Shown here in pieces: positions 12,633 to 21,831 of a stretch of DNA of 64,000 bases. The position numbers and the translations under genes were made by a program. Every line of letters begins with the position of its first letter. The first letter of the stretch is position 1. The DNA is taken from positions 64,001 through 128,000 of the forward strand of contig JAHPZA010000010.1 of assembly GCA_019058445.1 (NCBI GenBank), in the 5' to 3' direction. The DNA comes from Promethearchaeota archaeon. GTDB lineage: Archaea; Asgardarchaeota; Lokiarchaeia; Sigyniarchaeales; SOKP01. The notes under the pieces were generated by a model. The model was not told the DNA's origin and searched no databases. It saw nothing but the letters and a program-made list of their open reading frames with translations.

Positions 12633-12950
12633 TTAATCTTCGTCATAGAATTCAATACTACTATTTTGTTCTTCTGTATCCCTTTCTGATTCTTCCTTGG
12701 TATAAACACCTATATATTTTTCTCCGGGCCATTTTGTATTTATAATAATACCGGATATAATTAAAATAGCAAAGATCACGTAATAGGGGACTAAACTACC
12801 AGTAGGGAAAAATCTTAGCAGGACGTCAACCCAAGATACCATCCAGGCACCAATAGGTGTAACAAAAGGTTTTAAAACGCCTAAAATCAACGCGATAATA
12901 TCTGCTATTATTTGCAAAAATTCAATCCTTTCATATTCTTGGAACCACAT
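12633..12950 (-). CDS. Hypothetical membrane protein
   Basis: Hydrophobic segments and an acidic tail. GGAGG-type RBS upstream. Last gene of a tight three-gene operon. Confidence 0.65.
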   Translation of the reverse strand: MWFQEYERIEFLQIIADIIALILGVLKPFVTPIGAWMVSWVDVLLRFFPTGSLVPYYVIFAILIISGIIINTKWPGEKYIGVYTKEESERDTEEQNSSIEFYDED

Positions 12951-12968
12951 GTTGGTATTTACCTCCTT

Positions 12969-13487
12969 TTACTTTTTCCCTCTCTCGTATTTAATTTTTT
13001 CTCTATTTACCACAAAATCCAAAAGATCATATGCTTTTAAAATCACAGTTAGAAAATAGATTCCCATGTACAGCAGTATCATTTGCTGCAAATTCACTGT
13101 GACAATACCAAAATCCACTAGATCGAATTCTATTTCAAGGGCTCCAGAAAATTTGTAGCTCCATAGATATAAACAATTTAGAATAATCTGGATTAACGCA
13201 AAGGCACCACGTCTAATAGACTGCTTAGGTGCTGAGTAGGCAAAGAATGCTGTTCCAGAGATAATAAGCCCAAAAGCCCAAACATAGAATAGAATTTGAT
13301 TTACTTGCTGTTTATAAGCTTGTAATTCAACACCCTCGACATTAATCGTTTTTATCCAACTAAAAGTCCAAAAAGGGATAAGCACAGTACTAATAAAATA
13401 TATAGCGGCGATTATGGTTCCTCTGAGAATATTTTTAATTTTCGCATTTTCTAATTGCTTTGTAACTCTATCCTTATAAAAACTCAT
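12969..13487 (-). CDS. Hypothetical membrane protein (about 4 TM)
   Basis: Four hydrophobic helices. Starts 3 nt after the upstream stop codon. Confidence 0.7.
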   Translation of the reverse strand: MSFYKDRVTKQLENAKIKNILRGTIIAAIYFISTVLIPFWTFSWIKTINVEGVELQAYKQQVNQILFYVWAFGLIISGTAFFAYSAPKQSIRRGAFALIQIILNCLYLWSYKFSGALEIEFDLVDFGIVTVNLQQMILLYMGIYFLTVILKAYDLLDFVVNREKIKYERGKK

Positions 13488-13490
13488 TTT

Positions 13491-14054
13491 TTACACCTTC
13501 TCCTCAAATCCTCCTAAATCCATATCCTCTATATCTGCTTCAAATGAAATTAGTCCCAAGGAATATTTTGCCGAAATTTTTAATTCTTCTGCTACAAAAT
13601 CAAATATCGGATCTCTTGTTAAATCAGCATTCAGGGCAATATCAGTAAAATTTACATAGTCTATATCTTCATAATCAATACCAATTTTAAATTTCTTTTT
13701 CTCCCCGGCAGGAATGGTTGCAAATGATTTCTCATCTTCATAGAGTTTTACTTCTGTTGTAACATTGCCACTAACAGTAACTCTATCGTACACTAGATTT
13801 AACAACATCTCTACTTCCAGATCTTCTAAATCAAAATACCCCAAGTTATTAATTTCAAATTCAATATCAATTTCAAAGCTATTTGGATCAATAAATGGGT
13901 TGCCATCATAAGATACGTCAATATCGATATTTTCTTCATTAGTTAATATGAGTGCCGCAGAATACCCCCCTAGAAATGACACTAAAGACATTGAGGAAGC
14001 TAATATAAAGAGGAAGATTCGAACAATTAATCGAAAAATTCTTTCTGGTCTCAT
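13491..14054 (-). CDS. Membrane-anchored protein with an acidic beta-rich (LEA_2/WHy-like?) domain
   Basis: N-terminal TM helix, then alternating beta pattern (IEFEINNLGYFDLEDLEVE). The fold call is tentative. Confidence 0.6.
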   Translation of the reverse strand: MRPERIFRLIVRIFLFILASSMSLVSFLGGYSAALILTNEENIDIDVSYDGNPFIDPNSFEIDIEFEINNLGYFDLEDLEVEMLLNLVYDRVTVSGNVTTEVKLYEDEKSFATIPAGEKKKFKIGIDYEDIDYVNFTDIALNADLTRDPIFDFVAEELKISAKYSLGLISFEADIEDMDLGGFEEKV

Positions 14055-14269
14055 AATTGTTCTCCTATATTCTTTTTATTATTTTCATTTCTTTTTGTTC
14101 AATTTTATAGGTAAATTGTGACTAATTAAAATTATAAAGTTCCATCTATTAAAATTTATATATTTTTCTATAGGAGAAAAATCATTATTTTACTTCTTTA
14201 CTTTAGAAATTTCAGATAAAATTGAAAGGTAAAAAAAAAAAGATGCTAATTAAAAAACCGGTCGCAACC

Positions 14270-14314
14270 GTAAATCGCTAATCTTCTAACATTTATCAAG
14301 ATTAGTTCATTTTT
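14270..14314 (-). promoter_or_regulatory. Eukaryote-type SECIS element 1 (3' UTR of 14324..14686)
   Basis: Minus strand AUGAA-CUAAUCUU-GAUAAAUGUUAG-AAGAUUAG-CGAU. It has an AUGA/GA kink-turn core, an 8-bp stem and AAA 11 nt after AUGAN. AUGA lies 13 nt after the stop codon. Confidence 0.85.
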
Positions 14315-14323
14315 TTAAAAGAA

Positions 14324-14686
14324 TTAAATATGTTCTATTTCCAATGAAAACGAGCCTCTGTATTTACCAAAAAGTTTCCATGTATGTGCATCGATTTTAA
14401 TTGTTTTTGAGTTACTTTTTAATTCATTTTTCAGGTATTTATCAATATAAATATCAAATCCACCATTATCAACTTCAATTTGATTCCATTTTTCAAAATG
14501 AGGATTATTAGCAACTTTATGTTTCTCAACTAATTGAACAACATCACTGCAAAATGTTCCGGATCAAGATCTGGTAAAGTATCTATAAATAGCAAAAACT
14601 AAATCATTTAACTTATTTTGTTTAACGATTTTATTATGCTTTTCCTGTAAAAGTGTTAAGGCTCTTTCTGATATTTCTAAATTCAT
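14324..14686 (-). CDS. Putative selenoprotein, HesB/IscA-like (CC/Se-motif-like) fold, 120 aa, Sec41 (UGA at 14564-14566)
   Basis: MNLEISERALTLLQEKHNKIVKQNKLNDLVFAIYRYFTRS-U-SGTFCSDVVQLVEKHKV...GGFDIYIDK...KTIKIDAHTWKLFGKYRGSFSLEIEHI*. GGAG RBS. Homologous on both sides of the UGA to the two neighbouring genes. SECIS downstream. Absent from the ORF track. Confidence 0.85.
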
Positions 14687-14809
14687 CAATATACTCCTAA
14701 TCTTTGCTCAAAACTTTTTATTATTTATTTCTTTATAAATGAAAAAAGCTGAGAACTAAAAATAATATGGTTTATAATTTAAAATTTTAAGAATAATTTT
14801 AGTTATAAA

Positions 14810-15154
14810 TTATTTTTTATCTTCCTTTAAAATGAGAGATACAAATTCATCTTCAAATTTCTCAGTTTTCTGTATGTCTATTAATATTTTTCCTATCTCT
14901 GGAAAATCTTTTAATATCCTTCTTTCAATATAAATAAGAACAGTATTACCATAACCATCATCAACTTCTTCATATTTTTCGTATAGATCTATCTCAATTT
15001 TCGCCTCAGTAAAATTTAATTCAAGATAATAATCTAAATATGACCCCGCACAAGCCTGTTTGCTAATTTGATATATGAGAATTACAGGTTTTACATTTCT
15101 GCCTTCTTTTCGTGCCTGAATATATTCAATTGTGTCTTTTGTTAAAGAAAACAT
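14810..15154 (-). CDS. Cys-containing paralog of the flanking selenoproteins (HesB/IscA-like fold)
   Basis: MFSLTKDTIEYI...VILIYQISKQA-C-AGSYL...VLIYIE...KILIDI. The Cys aligns with the UGA of the neighbours. No SECIS in its 3' UTR. Confidence 0.75.
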   Translation of the reverse strand: MFSLTKDTIEYIQARKEGRNVKPVILIYQISKQACAGSYLDYYLELNFTEAKIEIDLYEKYEEVDDGYGNTVLIYIERRILKDFPEIGKILIDIQKTEKFEDEFVSLILKEDKK

Positions 15155-15259
15155 TTTTAAATTCCTTTATTAAAACTTATTATGTTTATTAATTATCATT
15201 TTTACCTCATTTTACGTTCTCATTATTCTATTTTCATATATGGAACGGGTGCATAACCG

Positions 15260-15300
15260 CAAATCATTTTTCTTCTAACATTTTAAAGAAAAACTCATAT
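15260..15300 (-). promoter_or_regulatory. Eukaryote-type SECIS element 2 (3' UTR of 15302..15682)
   Basis: Minus strand AUGAG-UUUUUCUU-UAAAAUGUUAG-AAGAAAAA-UGAU. Same architecture and the same AAAUGUUAGAAGA as SECIS 1, with compensatory stem changes. Confidence 0.85.
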
Positions 15301-15301
15301 T

Positions 15302-15682
15302 TTAACCATATACATCTTTTTGTTTCTTAAGAAATAATAAACCCATTTGCTCACCATTCAATTCACCAAGTGCCACATCAATTAGTACTATAGTTTTTTG
15401 TGTTAATTCTTGGATCAAATCATTTTCAATATAAACTTCAATATTAGGGTCATCTATTATCTCATTCCATTGAATAAAATTTTCCTTTTCATCAAGAACC
15501 TTATGCTTTTCGACTAATTCGATGACATTACCACAGAAGGCCATTGTTCAACTCCCCCCAGAATAATAGAAAATCACCAGAACATATTTATTTAGCTCGT
15601 TCAATATTTCATTCTGTTCAAATGGTTTATTCTTATTGTAAATAAAATCCAATGCTTTTTTAGAGATTTGTATTTTAAACAA
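15302..15682 (-). CDS. Putative selenoprotein, HesB/IscA-like fold, 126 aa, Sec45 (UGA at 15548-15550)
   Basis: TTG start after an AGGTGG RBS: MFKIQISKKALDFIYNKNKPFEQNEILNELNKYVLVIFYYSGGS-U-TMAFCGNVIELVEKHKV... The ORF track reports only the part after the UGA (15302..15544). Confidence 0.85.
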
Positions 15683-15908
15683 AAACCACCTACTTTAATT
15701 CTTGATTAATTAATATTTATGAAATAAATAGTTAAAATTTATCAAAAAGCTTTGGATTTCTCGATCCTTAAGCATTGATTTCAAAAGCCAGAATGGTTTT
15801 TTTATGATAATTAATTAACCAAAACCAATAAGTAGAAATATCATTATTTCTACATTTTTTTTAACCATTTAACAACTAACTCTTAAATAGAAAATAAAAT
15901 GAATTAGA

Positions 15909-18776
15909 GTGGAAATAATGGAAATAAATGCACATTCATTAGAAGTTCAAGAAGTAGTTAATAAAATGAATACTTCATTGGACACAGGATTATCTGAAAA
16001 AGAGGTAAATAAAAGAATTGAGGAGTATGGTTTAAACGAATTACGAGAAACTAAAAAAATTTCAGCATGGCAAATCTTTTTAAGTCAGTTTAAGGATTTT
16101 CTGGTTTACTTATTATTATTTGCAATTGCTATATCCCTTATCGTTGGATTTTATGAACTCTCTGTTGGGGAGGAACCTTCTGAATTCTTAGATGCTTTAG
16201 TAATATTTATAATATTAATTATTAACGCGGTTTTAGGATTTTATCAAGAGTATAAAGCAGAACAGGCATTAGAAAGCTTAAAAAGGATGGCCCCCCATAA
16301 TGCTAAAGTTAAAAGGGATGGGATGGTAAAAGAAATTGAGGTAAAATATGTAGTACCTGGAGATATCTTGCAATTAGATGAGGGTGATAAATTACCTGCT
16401 GATGCAAGGTTAATCCAAGCATATTCTTTATATATTGATGAAGCGATTCTTACTGGTGAATCTCAACCTGTCGAAAAAAATCTTAAATTAGTTGAAGAAA
16501 AGACAATTCTTGCAGATCGTAAAAATATGGTGTATAGCAATACAATAATAACTCGAGGTAATGGAGTAGCAATTGCTGTAGCAACCGGAATGCAGACAGA
16601 GATTGGAAAAATTGCTGAAAAAATTCAAGCAGAAGAACCTGAACCAAGTCCATTTCAAATTGAAGTTGACCGTTTTGGAAAATCTTTAGGGAAAATTATA
16701 TTGATTGTATGTTTTTTGGTTTTCTTAATAGAATTCTTTATAATCATATTAACTGAGGGTTTAGAATTTGGAAGGGAAGAAGTAGGCCATATAGTTGCCG
16801 CTTTAACTATAGCTATAAGTCTAGCAGTTTCCGCTGTACCAGAAGGATTAATAGTGGTAATAACAGTAGTTATGAGTATAGGAATGAGAAAGATGGCAGA
16901 TAGAAATGCATTGGTGAAGACTCTTACTGCTGTTGAAACTTTAGGACGGGTAAATATAATATGCTCAGATAAAACTGGCACACTTACTAAAAATGAGATG
17001 ACTATTGTAAAACTATTTCTTGGAGGAAATGAATATAATGTAGAGGGCGTGGGTTATAATGTTGAGGGAAAAATTTTAAATGAATCCGGGAATGCTGTGT
17101 CATTGGACTTATCGTATTTAAAGAGATTTTTAGAAGTAGGAAATTTTTGTAATAATTCTAGTGTAATTATTAATGAGGATGGAGTAAGTACTGATGTTGT
17201 GGGAGACCCGACTGAGATCTGCTTTAAAATTTTAGCATTGAAAATGAGTCTTGATACTAAAGCTGAGAAACTTAATGAAATCCCCTTTAGCTCTGATAGA
17301 AAAATGATGTCTGTTGCCATAAAAATCGATAATAAAATATATTCTTTTCTTAAAGGAGCACCTGATGTTTTATTAAAAAATGCAGCAAAAGGATTTTATA
17401 ATGGAGAAGAAAAACCGATTAATGAGATTAAAGACACCTTTCTTAATAAAAATGAAGAATTTGGTAAAAATGCTTTAAGAGTCTTAGGATTGGCATATAA
17501 ACCACTACATGAAGGTTATAATGAAGAGGATATGGAAAAAGATTACGTATATCTCGGACTTGTAGGTATTATAGATCCTGCTCGAGATGAGGTTAAAAAA
17601 TCAATAGTTCAGGCAAGAATGGCAGGAATTCGAACTATTATGATCACAGGAGATCATAAAATTACCGCAATTGCGATTGCTAAAGAGATTGGTTTAACTG
17701 ATAACGATGATGCTATAACTGGTGCGGAGTTAGAGGAGATATCGGATGAAAATTTAGCAAATCGGCTTCAAAATATAGATGTATTTGCAAGAGTCACATC
17801 GGAACATAAATTACGTATCCTTAAAATCTTAAAGACTCAAGGAAATGTTGTTTCGATGACCGGTGATGGAGTAAACGATGCTCCTGCTGTAAAAGGGGCG
17901 AATGTTGGAGTTGCTATGGGCTTAAAAGGAACTGAAGTCACGCAAGAAGCTTCGGATATGATCCTTATTGATGATAATTATGCCACTATTGTAAATGCGA
18001 TCGAAGAAGGAAGGGGTATTTTTGAAACTACTAAATGTTTCTTTAGATATATGCTAAGCGCAAATTTTGATGAAATAATCCTAATCTTAACAGCCTGGAT
18101 TCTTATGAAGCTTTTCGTTAATGTTTATCTCGCTATACCCCTTGAACCTATACAAATATTATGGTTAAATATTGCCACTGATGGTATTCCGGCGATGGTC
18201 TTAGGTTTAACTCCTACTGATCCTGATGTGATGAATTTTAAACCGCGTAAAGGTTTTAATATGATTGCTGATATCAAGAAAGCCATAATATTTGTGGCCA
18301 TTTTTGCAGCAATCACTGATGTGGCATTATATGTAGTTTGTTGGTCAATTTTAATTCCTGCTTGGAGTGATCCAAATTCACCTTGGTATGATCCCCGTTT
18401 AGTCAATGGAACTACGATTTGGGGCGTGAAATATTCAGCAGAGGAGTATCAAATTGGTGTAGTACAAACTATTGTTTTTACTAATGTAGTCTTTTTCGAA
18501 TTATTCTTTGTATTCTCATGTACTTCTGAATATAAACCAATGTGGGAATTTCCAAACAAACATTTATTCTGGGCGACAGCAGTATCATTTGGATTACACT
18601 TGGCAATTTTATTTACACCACTTTGCATCGCATTCCATGCAGTACCGATGGATCGATGGTTTTACTGGCTAGCAATTTTTTTGGGTTCAATTTTTATTAT
18701 ACCTGCTGAAGAAACAAGAAAATACTTAAAAAGAAGAAATTTTCAAAAAAGTCCACAAAATTTTGAAATCTCATAA
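15909..18776 (+). CDS. P-type ATPase, P2A (SERCA-like Ca2+-transporting)
   Basis: TGES, PEGL, DKTGT phosphorylation site, KGAP, TGDGVNDAPA. TM motifs SANFDE, NIATDG and FFEL. Confidence 0.93.
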   Translation: MEIMEINAHSLEVQEVVNKMNTSLDTGLSEKEVNKRIEEYGLNELRETKKISAWQIFLSQFKDFLVYLLLFAIAISLIVGFYELSVGEEPSEFLDALVIFIILIINAVLGFYQEYKAEQALESLKRMAPHNAKVKRDGMVKEIEVKYVVPGDILQLDEGDKLPADARLIQAYSLYIDEAILTGESQPVEKNLKLVEEKTILADRKNMVYSNTIITRGNGVAIAVATGMQTEIGKIAEKIQAEEPEPSPFQIEVDRFGKSLGKIILIVCFLVFLIEFFIIILTEGLEFGREEVGHIVAALTIAISLAVSAVPEGLIVVITVVMSIGMRKMADRNALVKTLTAVETLGRVNIICSDKTGTLTKNEMTIVKLFLGGNEYNVEGVGYNVEGKILNESGNAVSLDLSYLKRFLEVGNFCNNSSVIINEDGVSTDVVGDPTEICFKILALKMSLDTKAEKLNEIPFSSDRKMMSVAIKIDNKIYSFLKGAPDVLLKNAAKGFYNGEEKPINEIKDTFLNKNEEFGKNALRVLGLAYKPLHEGYNEEDMEKDYVYLGLVGIIDPARDEVKKSIVQARMAGIRTIMITGDHKITAIAIAKEIGLTDNDDAITGAELEEISDENLANRLQNIDVFARVTSEHKLRILKILKTQGNVVSMTGDGVNDAPAVKGANVGVAMGLKGTEVTQEASDMILIDDNYATIVNAIEEGRGIFETTKCFFRYMLSANFDEIILILTAWILMKLFVNVYLAIPLEPIQILWLNIATDGIPAMVLGLTPTDPDVMNFKPRKGFNMIADIKKAIIFVAIFAAITDVALYVVCWSILIPAWSDPNSPWYDPRLVNGTTIWGVKYSAEEYQIGVVQTIVFTNVVFFELFFVFSCTSEYKPMWEFPNKHLFWATAVSFGLHLAILFTPLCIAFHAVPMDRWFYWLAIFLGSIFIIPAEETRKYLKRRNFQKSPQNFEIS

Positions 18777-18975: not shown

Positions 18976-21831
18976 ATGACGATTAAAGAAGTATATCCTC
19001 ATGCAATGAGTATTGATGAAGTTACAAAATCACTGGACACGTCACTCAGCACGGGAATATCGGAACAAGAAGCTAATAAACGATTAGATGAATATGGTTT
19101 AAATGAATTAATCCAAAGAAAAAAAATCTCTCCATTTACTATTTTTATTGGACAATTTAAAGATTTTCTCGTTTATTTACTATTTTTTGCAATAAGTATT
19201 TCGATAATAGTAGGCTTTTATGAGCTTTCCAGGGGTGAAAATCCCTCAGAATTCTTAGATGCCTTAGTTATTTTCATTATTTTAATTTTGAATGCAATTT
19301 TGGGATTTTATCAAGAATATAAGGCGGAAAAATCATTAGAAAGTTTGAAAAGGTTAGCACCTCATTACGCTAAGGTTAAAAGAGATGGTAAAATTAGACA
19401 AATCAGTGTTAAAGATGTAGTGCCTGGAGATGTTATTCAATTAGACGAGGGTGAAAAATTACCTGCTGACGCCCGGTTAACAAAAGCTTTCTCGTTATAT
19501 GTCGATGAAGCTATTCTTACTGGAGAGTCAAAACCAGTTCATAAAAATTTGGATTTATTGGACACAAAAACGATGTTAGCAGATAGAAAGAATTGTATTT
19601 ACAGCAATACAATAATAACAAGGGGTAATGGAGAGGCAATTGTAATCGCTACAGGGATGCAAACTGAAATTGGAAAAATTGCAGAAAAAATTCAAGAAGA
19701 GGAGCCAGAACCAAGTCCTTTCCAGCAAGAAGTTGATCGATTCGGGAAAATGCTTGGAAAAATGATTATGATTGTATGTTTTCTAGTATTTGCTATAGAA
19801 TTGGTAATTATCATAGCTTTTTCTGGAATTGGATTTCAGCAGGAAGAAACAGAAGAGATTATAAATGCATTAACAATTGCAATAAGCCTTGCAGTTTCTG
19901 CCGTACCAGAAGGATTGGTTGTAGTTATTACGGTTGTAATGAGTTTAGGAATGAGACGAATGGCTGATAAAAATGCCTTGGTAAAAACACTTACTGCTGT
20001 TGAGACTTTAGGACGTGTAAACGTCATATGCTCAGATAAAACAGGAACCTTAACTAAAAATGAAATGACAGTTGTAAGGACTTTTATAAATGATAAAGTC
20101 TATAAAGTAGATGGAGTGGGATATAATATAATCGGGACAATCCTTGATGAAAACAATAATGTCATTCAAGAAAATCTTAATCTACTACGTTTTTTAGAAG
20201 TTTGTATGTTCTGTAATAATTCAAGTGTAAATATCATTAATGATGAGGGAGATACGGAAGTTGTGGGTGATCCCACAGAAATTTCACTAAAAGTTTTAGC
20301 AATGAAAATGAATTTACCAACGAAAATAGAAAAAATCGATGAAATACCATTTAATTCAGATAGAAAAATGATGACTGTAATCGCAAGAATTAATGGAGAA
20401 TTATTTGCACTTATAAAAGGAGCACCAGATGTCTTGTTGAAAAAAGCAAGCAAGGTTTTACACCAAGATCAGGATGTACCAATAGAGAAAGCTGAAAAAA
20501 TTATTTTGGAGCAAAATGAATATTTTGCAAAAGAAGCCTTACGAGTGTTGGGAATAGCCTATAAACCTCTAATTGAAGGATATAATGAGGAAAAGGTTGA
20601 AGAAGATTTTATATTCTTAGGTTTAGTAGGAATCATCGATCCCGCTAGGGATGAAGTGAAAAGTTCTATTGAGGAAGCTAGGAATGCGGGTATCAGAACA
20701 ATAATGATAACTGGTGATCACAAAAGTACTGCGATTGCCATAGCAAAACAAATTGGATTAACAGATAATGAAAATGCGATTACTGGAGCAGAATTGGAAG
20801 AAATGTCTGATAATGAATTAGCACAAAGAGTAAAAACTACTGATGTTTTTGCGAGGGTAACTTCAGAACATAAACTTCGCATTCTAAACTCGTTAAAAGC
20901 TGAACAAGACATTGTTTCCATGACCGGAGATGGAGTAAATGATGCACCTGCAGTAAAAGGTGCTAATGTCGGAGTCGCGATGGGGCTAAAAGGAACTGAA
21001 GTTACCCAAGAGGCAGCAGATATGATCCTTATCGATGATAATTACACAACGATCGTTAATGCTATTGAAGAAGGACGTGGTATTTTCGCAACTACAAAGA
21101 GTTTTTTTAGGTATATGTTAAGCTGTAATTTTGATGAAATTTTCATGATTTTAACTGCTTGGATTTTAATGAAAATCTTTATTAATGTTTATTTAGCTCA
21201 ACCACTTGAAGCTATACAAATATTATGGCTAAATGTTGCAACTGATGGAATTCCAGCAATGGTACTTGGATTAACTCCAACAGAACCCGACGTTATGGGA
21301 TATAAACCTCGTAAAGGCTTTAATATGATCTCAGACATCAAAAAAGCAATCATATTTGCAGCAGTTTTTGCGGCAATAACTGATGTAGGATTATATGTAA
21401 TAGTATGGTGGCTAATTAGGGGCCCTACTGGAGATGGAGGAATTTGGATGAATTTAGATCCTCGATTAGTTAATGGAACAACTATTTGGGGGATTCACTA
21501 TTCAGCAGAAGAATATCAAATTGCTGTAGCACAATCAATTGTATTTACCAATGTAGTGTTTTTTGAATTATTTTTTGTATTTTCATGTACCTCTGAAACC
21601 AGACCTGTTTGGGAATTTCGAAATAAACATCTATTTTGGGCAACCGGACTTTCATTCACTTTACATTTAGTAATTCTATTTACGCCATTAGCAATTGCAT
21701 TTCATACAGTTCCAATGGATCGATGGTATCATTGGTTAGCTATCTTTTTAGGCTCTGTGTTTATCATTCCGGCTGAAGAAATGAGAAAATATTTAATTAG
21801 ACGAAAAAAGGCTACAGAAATAATATATTAA
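18976..21831 (+). CDS. P-type ATPase, P2A (SERCA-like Ca2+-transporting), tandem paralog
   Basis: Same motifs (TGES, PEGL, DKTGT, GDGVND, SCNFDE, NVATDG). Colinear with 15909..18776. Confidence 0.93.
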   Translation: MTIKEVYPHAMSIDEVTKSLDTSLSTGISEQEANKRLDEYGLNELIQRKKISPFTIFIGQFKDFLVYLLFFAISISIIVGFYELSRGENPSEFLDALVIFIILILNAILGFYQEYKAEKSLESLKRLAPHYAKVKRDGKIRQISVKDVVPGDVIQLDEGEKLPADARLTKAFSLYVDEAILTGESKPVHKNLDLLDTKTMLADRKNCIYSNTIITRGNGEAIVIATGMQTEIGKIAEKIQEEEPEPSPFQQEVDRFGKMLGKMIMIVCFLVFAIELVIIIAFSGIGFQQEETEEIINALTIAISLAVSAVPEGLVVVITVVMSLGMRRMADKNALVKTLTAVETLGRVNVICSDKTGTLTKNEMTVVRTFINDKVYKVDGVGYNIIGTILDENNNVIQENLNLLRFLEVCMFCNNSSVNIINDEGDTEVVGDPTEISLKVLAMKMNLPTKIEKIDEIPFNSDRKMMTVIARINGELFALIKGAPDVLLKKASKVLHQDQDVPIEKAEKIILEQNEYFAKEALRVLGIAYKPLIEGYNEEKVEEDFIFLGLVGIIDPARDEVKSSIEEARNAGIRTIMITGDHKSTAIAIAKQIGLTDNENAITGAELEEMSDNELAQRVKTTDVFARVTSEHKLRILNSLKAEQDIVSMTGDGVNDAPAVKGANVGVAMGLKGTEVTQEAADMILIDDNYTTIVNAIEEGRGIFATTKSFFRYMLSCNFDEIFMILTAWILMKIFINVYLAQPLEAIQILWLNVATDGIPAMVLGLTPTEPDVMGYKPRKGFNMISDIKKAIIFAAVFAAITDVGLYVIVWWLIRGPTGDGGIWMNLDPRLVNGTTIWGIHYSAEEYQIAVAQSIVFTNVVFFELFFVFSCTSETRPVWEFRNKHLFWATGLSFTLHLVILFTPLAIAFHTVPMDRWYHWLAIFLGSVFIIPAEEMRKYLIRRKKATEIIY

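Follow-up and report, generated by a model that had tools for sequence, protein, structure and literature searches.

Two hairpins on the minus strand of a 64,000-nucleotide stretch of DNA from Promethearchaeota archaeon (contig JAHPZA010000010.1, positions 64,001 to 128,000; hereafter the window) are best read as functional selenocysteine insertion sequence (SECIS) elements of the Lokiarchaeial type, located in the 3' untranslated regions (UTRs) of two paralogous IscA/HesB-like genes and directing selenocysteine (Sec, U) to an in-frame UGA of each one. We assign to this reading a probability of about 0.9. According to it, each element would direct the Sec-specific elongation factor and Sec-tRNA(Sec) to the single UGA placed about 250 nt upstream in its own mRNA, and the decoding of this UGA as selenocysteine would give two paralogous proteins of ~120 residues. 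The window comes from a Lokiarchaeial sediment metagenome-assembled genome (4.6 Mb, 10 contigs, roughly 31% GC), and the minus strand of 14200-15700 holds three tandem genes in the order Sec-A, Cys paralog, and Sec-B. The genes, the Sec codons, and the core hairpins are the following:

15302..15682, minus strand: selenoprotein gene A (type A), 126 aa, TTG start, TAA stop at 15304-15302
15550-15548, minus strand: UGA, Sec codon of gene A, residue 45, in the motif GGS-U-TMAF-C
15264..15298, minus strand: core hairpin of SECIS A, with AUGA at 15298-15295, 5' strand at 15294-15286, loop at 15285-15275, 3' strand at 15274-15266, and GA at 15265-15264
14810..15154, minus strand: Cys paralog between both Sec genes, 114 aa, motif QA-C-AGSY, whose Cys aligns with Sec
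14324..14689, minus strand: selenoprotein gene B (type B), 121 aa, start at TTG 14689 or ATG 14686, TAA stop at 14326-14324
14566-14564, minus strand: UGA, Sec codon of gene B, residue 42, in the motif RS-U-SGTF-C
14275..14310, minus strand: core hairpin of SECIS B, with AUGA at 14310-14307, 5' strand at 14306-14298, loop at 14297-14286, 3' strand at 14285-14277, and GA at 14276-14275

SECIS A starts 3 nt past the stop codon of its gene and 250 nt past the UGA, with a 9-bp stem (first pair G.U) and an 11-nt loop, UAAAAUGUUAG, followed by GA. SECIS B begins 13 nt past the stop and 254 nt past the UGA; its stem consists of 8 bp and, next to the core, an A.C, its loop measures 12 nt, GAUAAAUGUUAG, and GA again follows. 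Both had been proposed as eukaryote-type SECIS in a sequence-only reading of the window, whose positions and sequences are confirmed, the spans being correct within about 4 nt. The three compensatory pairs by which it distinguished the two stems (C-G to U-A once and A-U to U-A twice) can be read directly from the sequence, the apical loop motif AAAUGUUAGAAGA is indeed shared by both hairpins, and the gaps of 3 and 13 nt between stop codons and AUGA are as it gave them. Also, its statement that the elements are unlike the GAA/A SECIS of methanogens agrees with sequence and folds, where no GAA_A bulge appears in the core hairpin.

In their core, geometry, loop features, and position, the two elements correspond to the Lokiarchaeial SECIS (lokiSECIS) described by Mariotti et al. 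2016 (PMC4989117), which comprises AUGA, a 9-bp stem, an 11-nt loop A-rich at its start, and then GA, close behind the stop codon; the last base of the loop is an ultraconserved G, usually preceded by A. The AUGA/GA core is present in both copies, and both loops begin A-rich and end in a G preceded by A. Copy A has exactly the 9-bp stem and 11-nt loop, and copy B, with its A.C and one extra loop nucleotide, still falls within the type. Moreover, both stand shortly behind genes that contain an in-frame UGA, and the genome carries archaeal Sec machinery. The eukaryote-type call is then correct, yet this type of SECIS had been known from Lokiarchaeia and other Asgard archaea before; for example, Huang et al. 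2024 (PMC11227280) examined 1439 Asgard selenoprotein genes and found eSECIS-like elements after 85% of them.

The association of the motif with genes containing UGA, expected in the sequence-only reading, was examined in the whole genome. The covariance-model scan that it had suggested did not serve this purpose, being the two window copies the only matches of the family model genome-wide, with the Prx-like, VhuU, and other SECIS undetected. This model is too sequence-specific, and a structural descriptor was therefore used for the association, which did hold. In its strict form (AUGA, 9-bp stem, 11-12-nt loop starting A-rich and ending in AG, then GA), five sites are found in the 4.6-Mb genome versus none in each of six dinucleotide-matched random genomes. 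All five lie directly behind open reading frames (ORFs) with an in-frame UGA, encoding a VhuU-type peptide, a Prx-like protein (motif W-U-VY-U), a Cys-Sec-Sec protein, and genes A and B.

Among the 30 homologous 3' UTRs of the family, all of which align over the SECIS, the stem is 93% paired versus about 48% when the partner columns are slid, compensatory changes on both sides are present at 8 of the 9 stem pairs, and none of 500 shuffles reaches the observed scores. The first half of the core reads AUGA in 25 sequences, GUGA in 2, and AUGU in 3, and the GA is invariant, as are AAA and the terminal G of the loop. Matches of the family model from outside its seed (L060, L025, L017, L022, and L068) are all located after Sec-type genes and none after Cys-type genes. 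Indeed, no SECIS was found after a Cys-type gene in any locus examined, and the Cys paralog of the window has neither an in-frame UGA nor a SECIS downstream.

These data can be set against the idea that the hairpins are ordinary AT-rich structures, terminator-like or derived from repeats, unrelated to the UGAs, with the genes being short ORFs or pseudogenes split by a stop. At roughly 31% GC, the right geometry does arise by chance (a geometry-only descriptor gives 9 sites in the genome versus about 6 expected), and a U-run follows the small GC hairpin located downstream of copy B. Folding points partly in the same direction: the RNAfold check proposed in the sequence-only reading returned the hairpins as the minimum-energy fold, but with an energy that is ordinary for AT-rich sequence and no better than that of shuffled sequence (z about -0.7). 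Energy alone proves nothing, and the case has to rest on other evidence, by which chance is excluded. The full motif is absent from the six random genomes, its five real copies all follow UGA-containing ORFs, UGA and hairpin co-occur in about 30 homologs with Cys paralogs devoid of the hairpin, the UGA aligns with the Cys of the paralog, and both halves of the genes are under purifying selection (see below). Tested against the comparative data, the explanation by ordinary hairpins failed, and we regard it as extremely improbable.

Three further observations concern the other SECIS of the genome. The VhuU-type gene is an unannotated gene of 50 codons (RCFD-C-U-LSCAAH; L011:2852-3004, genome contig C3, plus strand) beside hdrB/hdrC-like genes, with its SECIS at C3:242273, and its terminating UGA is the UGA in the AUGA core of its own SECIS. 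The Cys-Sec-Sec protein is encoded by an ORF of 156 residues with two adjacent in-frame UGAs (VG-C-U-U-E; L014:2522-2992, C6:633575-634045, plus strand), for which no Pfam family was found; a canonical lokiSECIS lies at C6:634054, 8 nt past its stop. In addition, a second lokiSECIS is present ~730 nt downstream of the SECIS of the Prx-like gene on the same strand (L070:2101-2179, minus strand, C3, and the matching L071:2102-2180), which suggests that another selenoprotein gene adjoins it.

On the protein side, a profile of the three paralogs was used in a six-frame search over 301 genomes sampled from the phylum. Matches were obtained in 26 of them (24 of 68 in its own family and 1 of 233 elsewhere), 25 being genomes other than this one. 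The matches number 35; a single TGA occurs in 31 of them, one of which also has a TAA, and the four without TGA correspond to two Cys paralogs and two fragments. Genes A and B each have a single in-frame UGA, at the same alignment column as the one TGA of their orthologs. In an alignment of 34 sequences, this Sec/Cys position is the sole invariant column, occupied by Cys in the middle paralog, and the motif common to the Sec forms is S-U-x3-[FY]-C. The read-through proteins A and B share 36% identity, and the middle protein is 21% identical to B and about 19% to A.

The ratio of nonsynonymous to synonymous substitution rates (dN/dS) lies at 0.12-0.35 over the codons preceding the UGA and at 0.14-0.19 over those that follow. 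For gene A, compared with its L016 and L018 orthologs, values of 0.12-0.19 are obtained on both sides of the UGA, and for gene B, 0.18-0.22. Purifying selection before and after the UGA implies that both parts are translated in one frame.

Several orthologs end at a UGA, and in two of them this UGA sits within the AUGA core. Both Sec paralogs of one genome (L037:1875-1940 and L037:2445-2510) end in this way, so the same mRNA would read UGA as Sec and as stop. In public databases, gene calls of the family are either cut at the UGA, leaving 80-aa fragments that begin at a Met after it, or carry W at this position. Nearly all the full-length Sec forms inspected (among P0021-P0035) have this W; in P0021, the sole entry checked, it corresponds to a TGA translated as Trp by the pipeline. 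The family is small, with 67 clusters (50% identity) at E ≤ 0.001 among 1.84 billion proteins, many of them starting exactly after the UGA.

Most components of the Sec machinery were located in the genome. SepSecS is found with 478 bits, and EFSec, located 7 kb from it, with 242 bits, just above the cut-off; a PSTK-like kinase gene reaches 149 bits, below its curated cut-off, and SelD contains one in-frame TGA. Between SepSecS and EFSec there is a tRNA(UCA) candidate (L065:1440-1620, minus strand; C6, about 1059740-1059920). As we read it, its anticodon loop is CUUCAAA, with UCA inside; the acceptor stem has 9 bp, the variable arm is long, the T-arm is interrupted, and one or more introns are apparent. 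For comparison, Mariotti et al. 2016 (PMC4989117) reported that the tRNA-Sec of Loki is interrupted by an intron in its T-loop and is encoded close to EFSec. The Rfam tRNA-Sec model gave no match on the genome at E ≤ 0.001. Another candidate, reported by ARAGORN as tRNA-SeC(tca) (L015:221-326; C1:27020-27126), was rejected since its sequence reads as tRNA-Ser(UGA): the variable arm is long, and a canonical intron follows position 37.

A second explanation accepts that the UGA is read through, though not as Sec: a near-cognate tRNA, or reassignment to Trp or Cys, would provide the amino acid, and the hairpin would be a kink-turn-like site for L7Ae, serving for example in mRNA stability or translational control. 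The absence of a tRNA-Sec above the Rfam threshold and the Trp that some public pipelines placed at the TGA of homologs are compatible with it, and decoding as Sec is itself deduced from sequence. Nonetheless, UGA is a true stop in several orthologs of the family, so it is not reassigned, and an in-frame UGA at one column only, with Cys in the paralogs, is the classic Sec/Cys signature. SepSecS, EFSec, the PSTK-like gene, and SelD are present, and in this genome the same motif follows the VhuU and Prx-like genes, which are known to encode selenoproteins; this also speaks for Sec. We consider read-through without Sec very unlikely.

It could also be that the SECIS are real and one or both genes are decaying, the paralogs being redundant, the Cys copy doing the work, and the deviations of copy B reflecting loss of function. 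This would fit with a SECIS B that departs from the 9-bp/11-nt canon, with a Cys paralog lying between both Sec genes, and with the truncated C-termini or altered cores of some orthologs. In the case of copy B, a 12-nt loop is common to type-B orthologs with an otherwise intact stem (L018, and L016 with the same length by alignment), and in the L018 ortholog, a standard A-U takes the place of the A.C of the window copy; the 12-nt loop thus looks like a trait of the subfamily. Moreover, gene B shows a dN/dS of about 0.2 on both sides of the UGA, and the order of the three genes is conserved in other genomes. Decay of this kind is given a slim chance, and two functional SECIS remain the preferred reading.

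Some points weigh against this preferred reading and should be considered together. Besides the unremarkable single-sequence folding energy, SECIS B is off the canon at two places, the A.C at the first stem position and the 12-nt loop. Three closely related orthologs show AUGU in place of AUGA and have a single base bulged out of the 3' stem strand, and the SECIS of one ortholog has an insertion of roughly 38 nt inside the apical loop (variant type-A 3' UTRs with loop insertion or AUGU: L022:1846-1967; L024, L025, L028). Either the motif tolerates such variation or some copies are decaying or weakened. No SECIS or other relevant family was detected by an Rfam scan of the whole window at gathering threshold, and at E ≤ 10 the region 14000-15800 gave no SECIS family, only chance snoRNA and sRNA matches; standard SECIS tools are known to fail on Loki SECIS (Mariotti et al. 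2016, PMC4989117). The tRNA-Sec is a weak candidate, with 28 bits versus an Rfam cut-off of 47 and its apparent intron(s). Finally, Sec incorporation and transcription of the locus are deduced from DNA, the only runs listed being sediment metagenome DNA.

The functional unit is probably larger than the hairpin, comprising the core and a GC mini-hairpin, which many copies seem to enclose with a lower stem to form a three-way junction. The proposed elements in the window are the following:

15235..15314, minus strand: full proposed SECIS A, a three-way junction, with helix I formed by 15314-15306 and 15243-15235
15259-15257 with 15248-15246, minus strand: GC mini-hairpin of SECIS A (CGG with CCG), inside helix I, as is the core hairpin
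14250..14318, minus strand: full proposed SECIS B, with an A/U-only helix I formed by 14318-14311 and 14257-14250, enclosing the core hairpin and the GC mini-hairpin
14270-14267 with 14262-14259, minus strand: GC mini-hairpin of SECIS B (CGGU with ACCG), loop UGCG

In both copies, the mini-hairpin (CGG...CCG) stands 4-5 nt after the GA, and it is conserved in the family, being 93% paired in both alignments. As for helix I of SECIS A, its 5' strand is made of the Val-Tyr-Gly codons of gene A (15314-15306). In about 11 of 18 genomes, these last sense codons of type A, GUAUAUGG, are matched by the complement of their sequence in a box of conserved non-coding DNA, CCAUAUAU/C, that immediately follows the mini-hairpin, whereas a type-A subgroup with shorter C-termini has other pairing sequences (ACAUGA/UCAUGU) at the same place. 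Helix I is 73% paired in the comparison, with one pair changed from U-A to C-G in 3 sequences, and for SECIS A, we infer it with moderate strength. The helix I of copy B, on the other hand, is A/U-only and of low complexity, without statistical support on its own. In two orthologs (L032:371-470 and L034:1846-1945), an earlier stop removes the C-terminal ...NVYG, and the old codons (GUAUACGG / GUAUAUGG) are kept upstream of the SECIS. In L032, the complementarity of these former codons to the box after the mini-hairpin suggests selection acting at the RNA level.

The same architecture appears in other elements. The minimum-free-energy folds of 4 of 5 SECIS regions in the genome show this three-way junction, the Prx-like element being compatible with it, and the 3' UTR of SelD, as read from its sequence, also holds such a mini-hairpin. 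An independent set of 33 SECIS next to Prx-like genes, from genomes of the same family and including this one, was analyzed; both this alignment and that of the window family were made by sequence and not fitted to structure. In the Prx-like set, the upper helix is 91% paired with changes on both sides at 9 of 9 pairs, the mini-hairpin 86.5% (4 of 5 pairs), and the lower stem 66% (6 of 6 pairs), in comparison with 28-49% for the slid controls, and none of 500 shuffles reaches the observed scores. All 33 Prx-like elements are followed by a mini-hairpin with two or more GC pairs, compared with 20% of random positions. In single-sequence folding, the number of enclosing pairs obtained after shuffling the 5' flank often equals that of the real sequence; hence, for this stem the argument is the comparative one. 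The proposed layout, in which the mini-hairpin has a G-C-containing loop and lies 1-6 nt 3' of the GA, is compatible with all six SECIS regions examined in the genome, the 30 family elements, and the 33 Prx-like elements.

The published model for Asgard archaea includes only the core, the upper stem, and the apical loop (PMC4989117, PMC11227280). Huang et al. 2024 (PMC11227280) mention lower stems as well as rare eaSECIS-like structures downstream of eSECIS-like ones, which were judged probably nonfunctional. No description of the conserved mini-hairpin was found in the accessible open-access literature. If the mini-hairpin and the closing stem were required, the way in which Asgard SECIS are modeled, searched, and compared with eukaryotic ones would change, and both parts would offer concrete mutants for the existing Methanococcus reporter system. 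Furthermore, if a second protein, EFSec for instance, were to bind at the mini-hairpin while the core is occupied by an L7Ae-type protein, eukaryote-like and prokaryote-like recognition would be combined in one element.

With respect to the encoded proteins, A and B, of about 120 residues, are predicted to adopt an IscA/HesB-like fold. Modeled with AlphaFold2 from the family alignment, protein A obtains a predicted local distance difference test (pLDDT) score of 88. When this model is compared with the PDB by Foldseek, IscA/SufA/HesB-type Fe-S biosynthesis proteins occupy the first 8 places and 11 of the first 12, with E values down to 4.5e-4 and template-modeling (TM) scores of 0.45-0.59. In the model, Sec is placed in the loop between two long strands forming a beta-hairpin, five residues before the conserved Cys. 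Sequence similarity to PF01521 (IscA/HesB; gathering threshold 26.3 bits) is weak: 5 of 34 members match, the best with E 8e-5, and P0001 stays below the cut-off with 13.8 bits. IscA proteins carry a C-terminal CxC motif, and this Cys pair is absent from the 34-sequence alignment. A profile search of PDB sequences gave nothing meaningful.

The family belongs to neither of two curated selenoprotein families. For TIGR01911 (HesB-like selenoprotein), the cut-off of 66 bits is not reached, with 2 of 34 members at E 0.05 and no match in the genome. For NF041239 (CC/Se motif), with a cut-off of 40 bits, 8 of 34 members match weakly, the best being L043 with 22.8 bits and the window proteins having at most 12 bits; L043, the most divergent homolog, aligns with this model over nearly its full length. 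A language-model protein-atlas search with the Cys paralog landed beside PF01521 and CC_Se_fam clusters, at scores that serve only as a lead. By analogy, from the U-x4-C pair on an IscA-like scaffold one could guess at a role in redox chemistry or in metal or metalloid handling.

The neighborhood of the trio is conserved, with the order ATPase, Sec-A, Cys, Sec-B, three small membrane proteins, flavin mononucleotide (FMN) reductase, and radical S-adenosylmethionine (SAM) protein kept in other assemblies. Divergent from gene A, two tandem paralogous P2-type (PMR1/SERCA-like) cation ATPases are encoded at 15909-18776 and 18976-21831 of the window (plus strand); their adjacency to the trio is conserved in other assemblies, and no evidence of a functional link with the selenoproteins was found. 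On the 3' side of gene B, three small genes of the same strand (187, 172, and 105 aa; window 12633-14054, minus strand) encode membrane-protein-like products and keep their synteny with the trio. A scan of these three genes against Pfam and NCBIfam returned no family, and the neighborhood therefore gives no functional clue.

Regarding novelty, seven selenoprotein families are listed for Asgard archaea (SelD, FrhA/VhuU, HdrA, FrhD/VhuD, Prx-like, AhpF-N, and DsbA-like; Huang et al. 2024, PMC11227280), and a 2026 review gives 11 archaeal families, with HesB-like (UxGP) for methanogens only. The family of the window is absent from both lists, neither Mariotti 2016 nor Sun 2021 includes it, and nothing further on it was found among novel Asgard selenoproteins in the open-access literature. 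This absence is explained by the surveys having looked for homologs of known families. The new content is then likely to be an unlisted Lokiarchaeial selenoprotein family, with a predicted IscA-like fold, a U-x4-C motif, and a Sec/Cys/Sec tandem, in addition to the comparative evidence for the mini-hairpin and the closing stem. The more general proposals are tentative and stand somewhat short of even odds: that the functional SECIS of Lokiarchaeia would be a three-way junction made of a lower stem, a kink-turn-like AUGA/GA core, and a GC mini-hairpin and, separately, that the IscA-fold proteins with U-x4-C would be a selenoprotein family new to archaea. A search going outward from the SECIS finds families missed by the published lists, and the locus adds about 30 aligned and covarying SECIS examples and a natural Sec/Cys/Sec paralog trio for functional study. 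This is relevant because the Asgard SECIS is a proposed link between archaeal and eukaryotic Sec encoding.

Among known systems, the HesB-like selenoprotein (TIGR01911), from Methanococcales and anaerobic bacteria, resembles the window proteins in its small IscA/HesB-type fold, in having Sec in place of Cys, and in its anaerobic Sec-using host. However, its motif is UxGP instead of S-U-x3-[FY]-C. The CC/Se family (NF041239, Pfam CC_Se_fam; Moorella-type, CxxU) is the best-scoring curated family, but it is bacterial, with another Sec motif, and all scores of the window family against it are below 40 bits.

At the RNA level, the window elements share with the SECIS of Euryarchaeota (Methanococcus and Methanopyrus) the location in an archaeal 3' UTR and a short GC-only helix within the element, whereas they lack the GAA_A bulge and the GC-rich lower stem of 10 bp, having AUGA/GA as core. 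The likeness to eukaryotic type I SECIS, a kink-turn bound by SBP2, includes the AUGA...GA quartet, the unpaired A's of the loop about 10 nt from the core, and a 3'-UTR place from which they act at a distance on an upstream UGA. The upper helix of eukaryotic SECIS has about 12-14 bp and is shorter here, with 9 bp; the stop is very near, at just 3-13 nt, the 3' side carries an additional mini-hairpin, and the Rfam models of eukaryotic SECIS do not match the window hairpins.

Finally, the closest relatives are lokiSECIS and eSECIS-like type I elements, with the same AUGA, 9-bp stem, 11-nt loop with A-rich start and AG end, GA, and short distance to the stop. The setting is also the same, a Lokiarchaeial host with archaeal Sec machinery and without SBP2, a protein of which none is known in Asgard archaea (PMC4989117, PMC11227280) or in archaea as a whole. 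The differences are that the window elements serve a protein family outside the seven published for Asgard archaea; that the loop consensus of this family is N-AAAU-NN-UAG, compared with an AAAAA start in lokiSECIS, being the loop of copy B 12 nt long; and that a conserved GC mini-hairpin is here present 3' of the GA, together with a closing lower stem.

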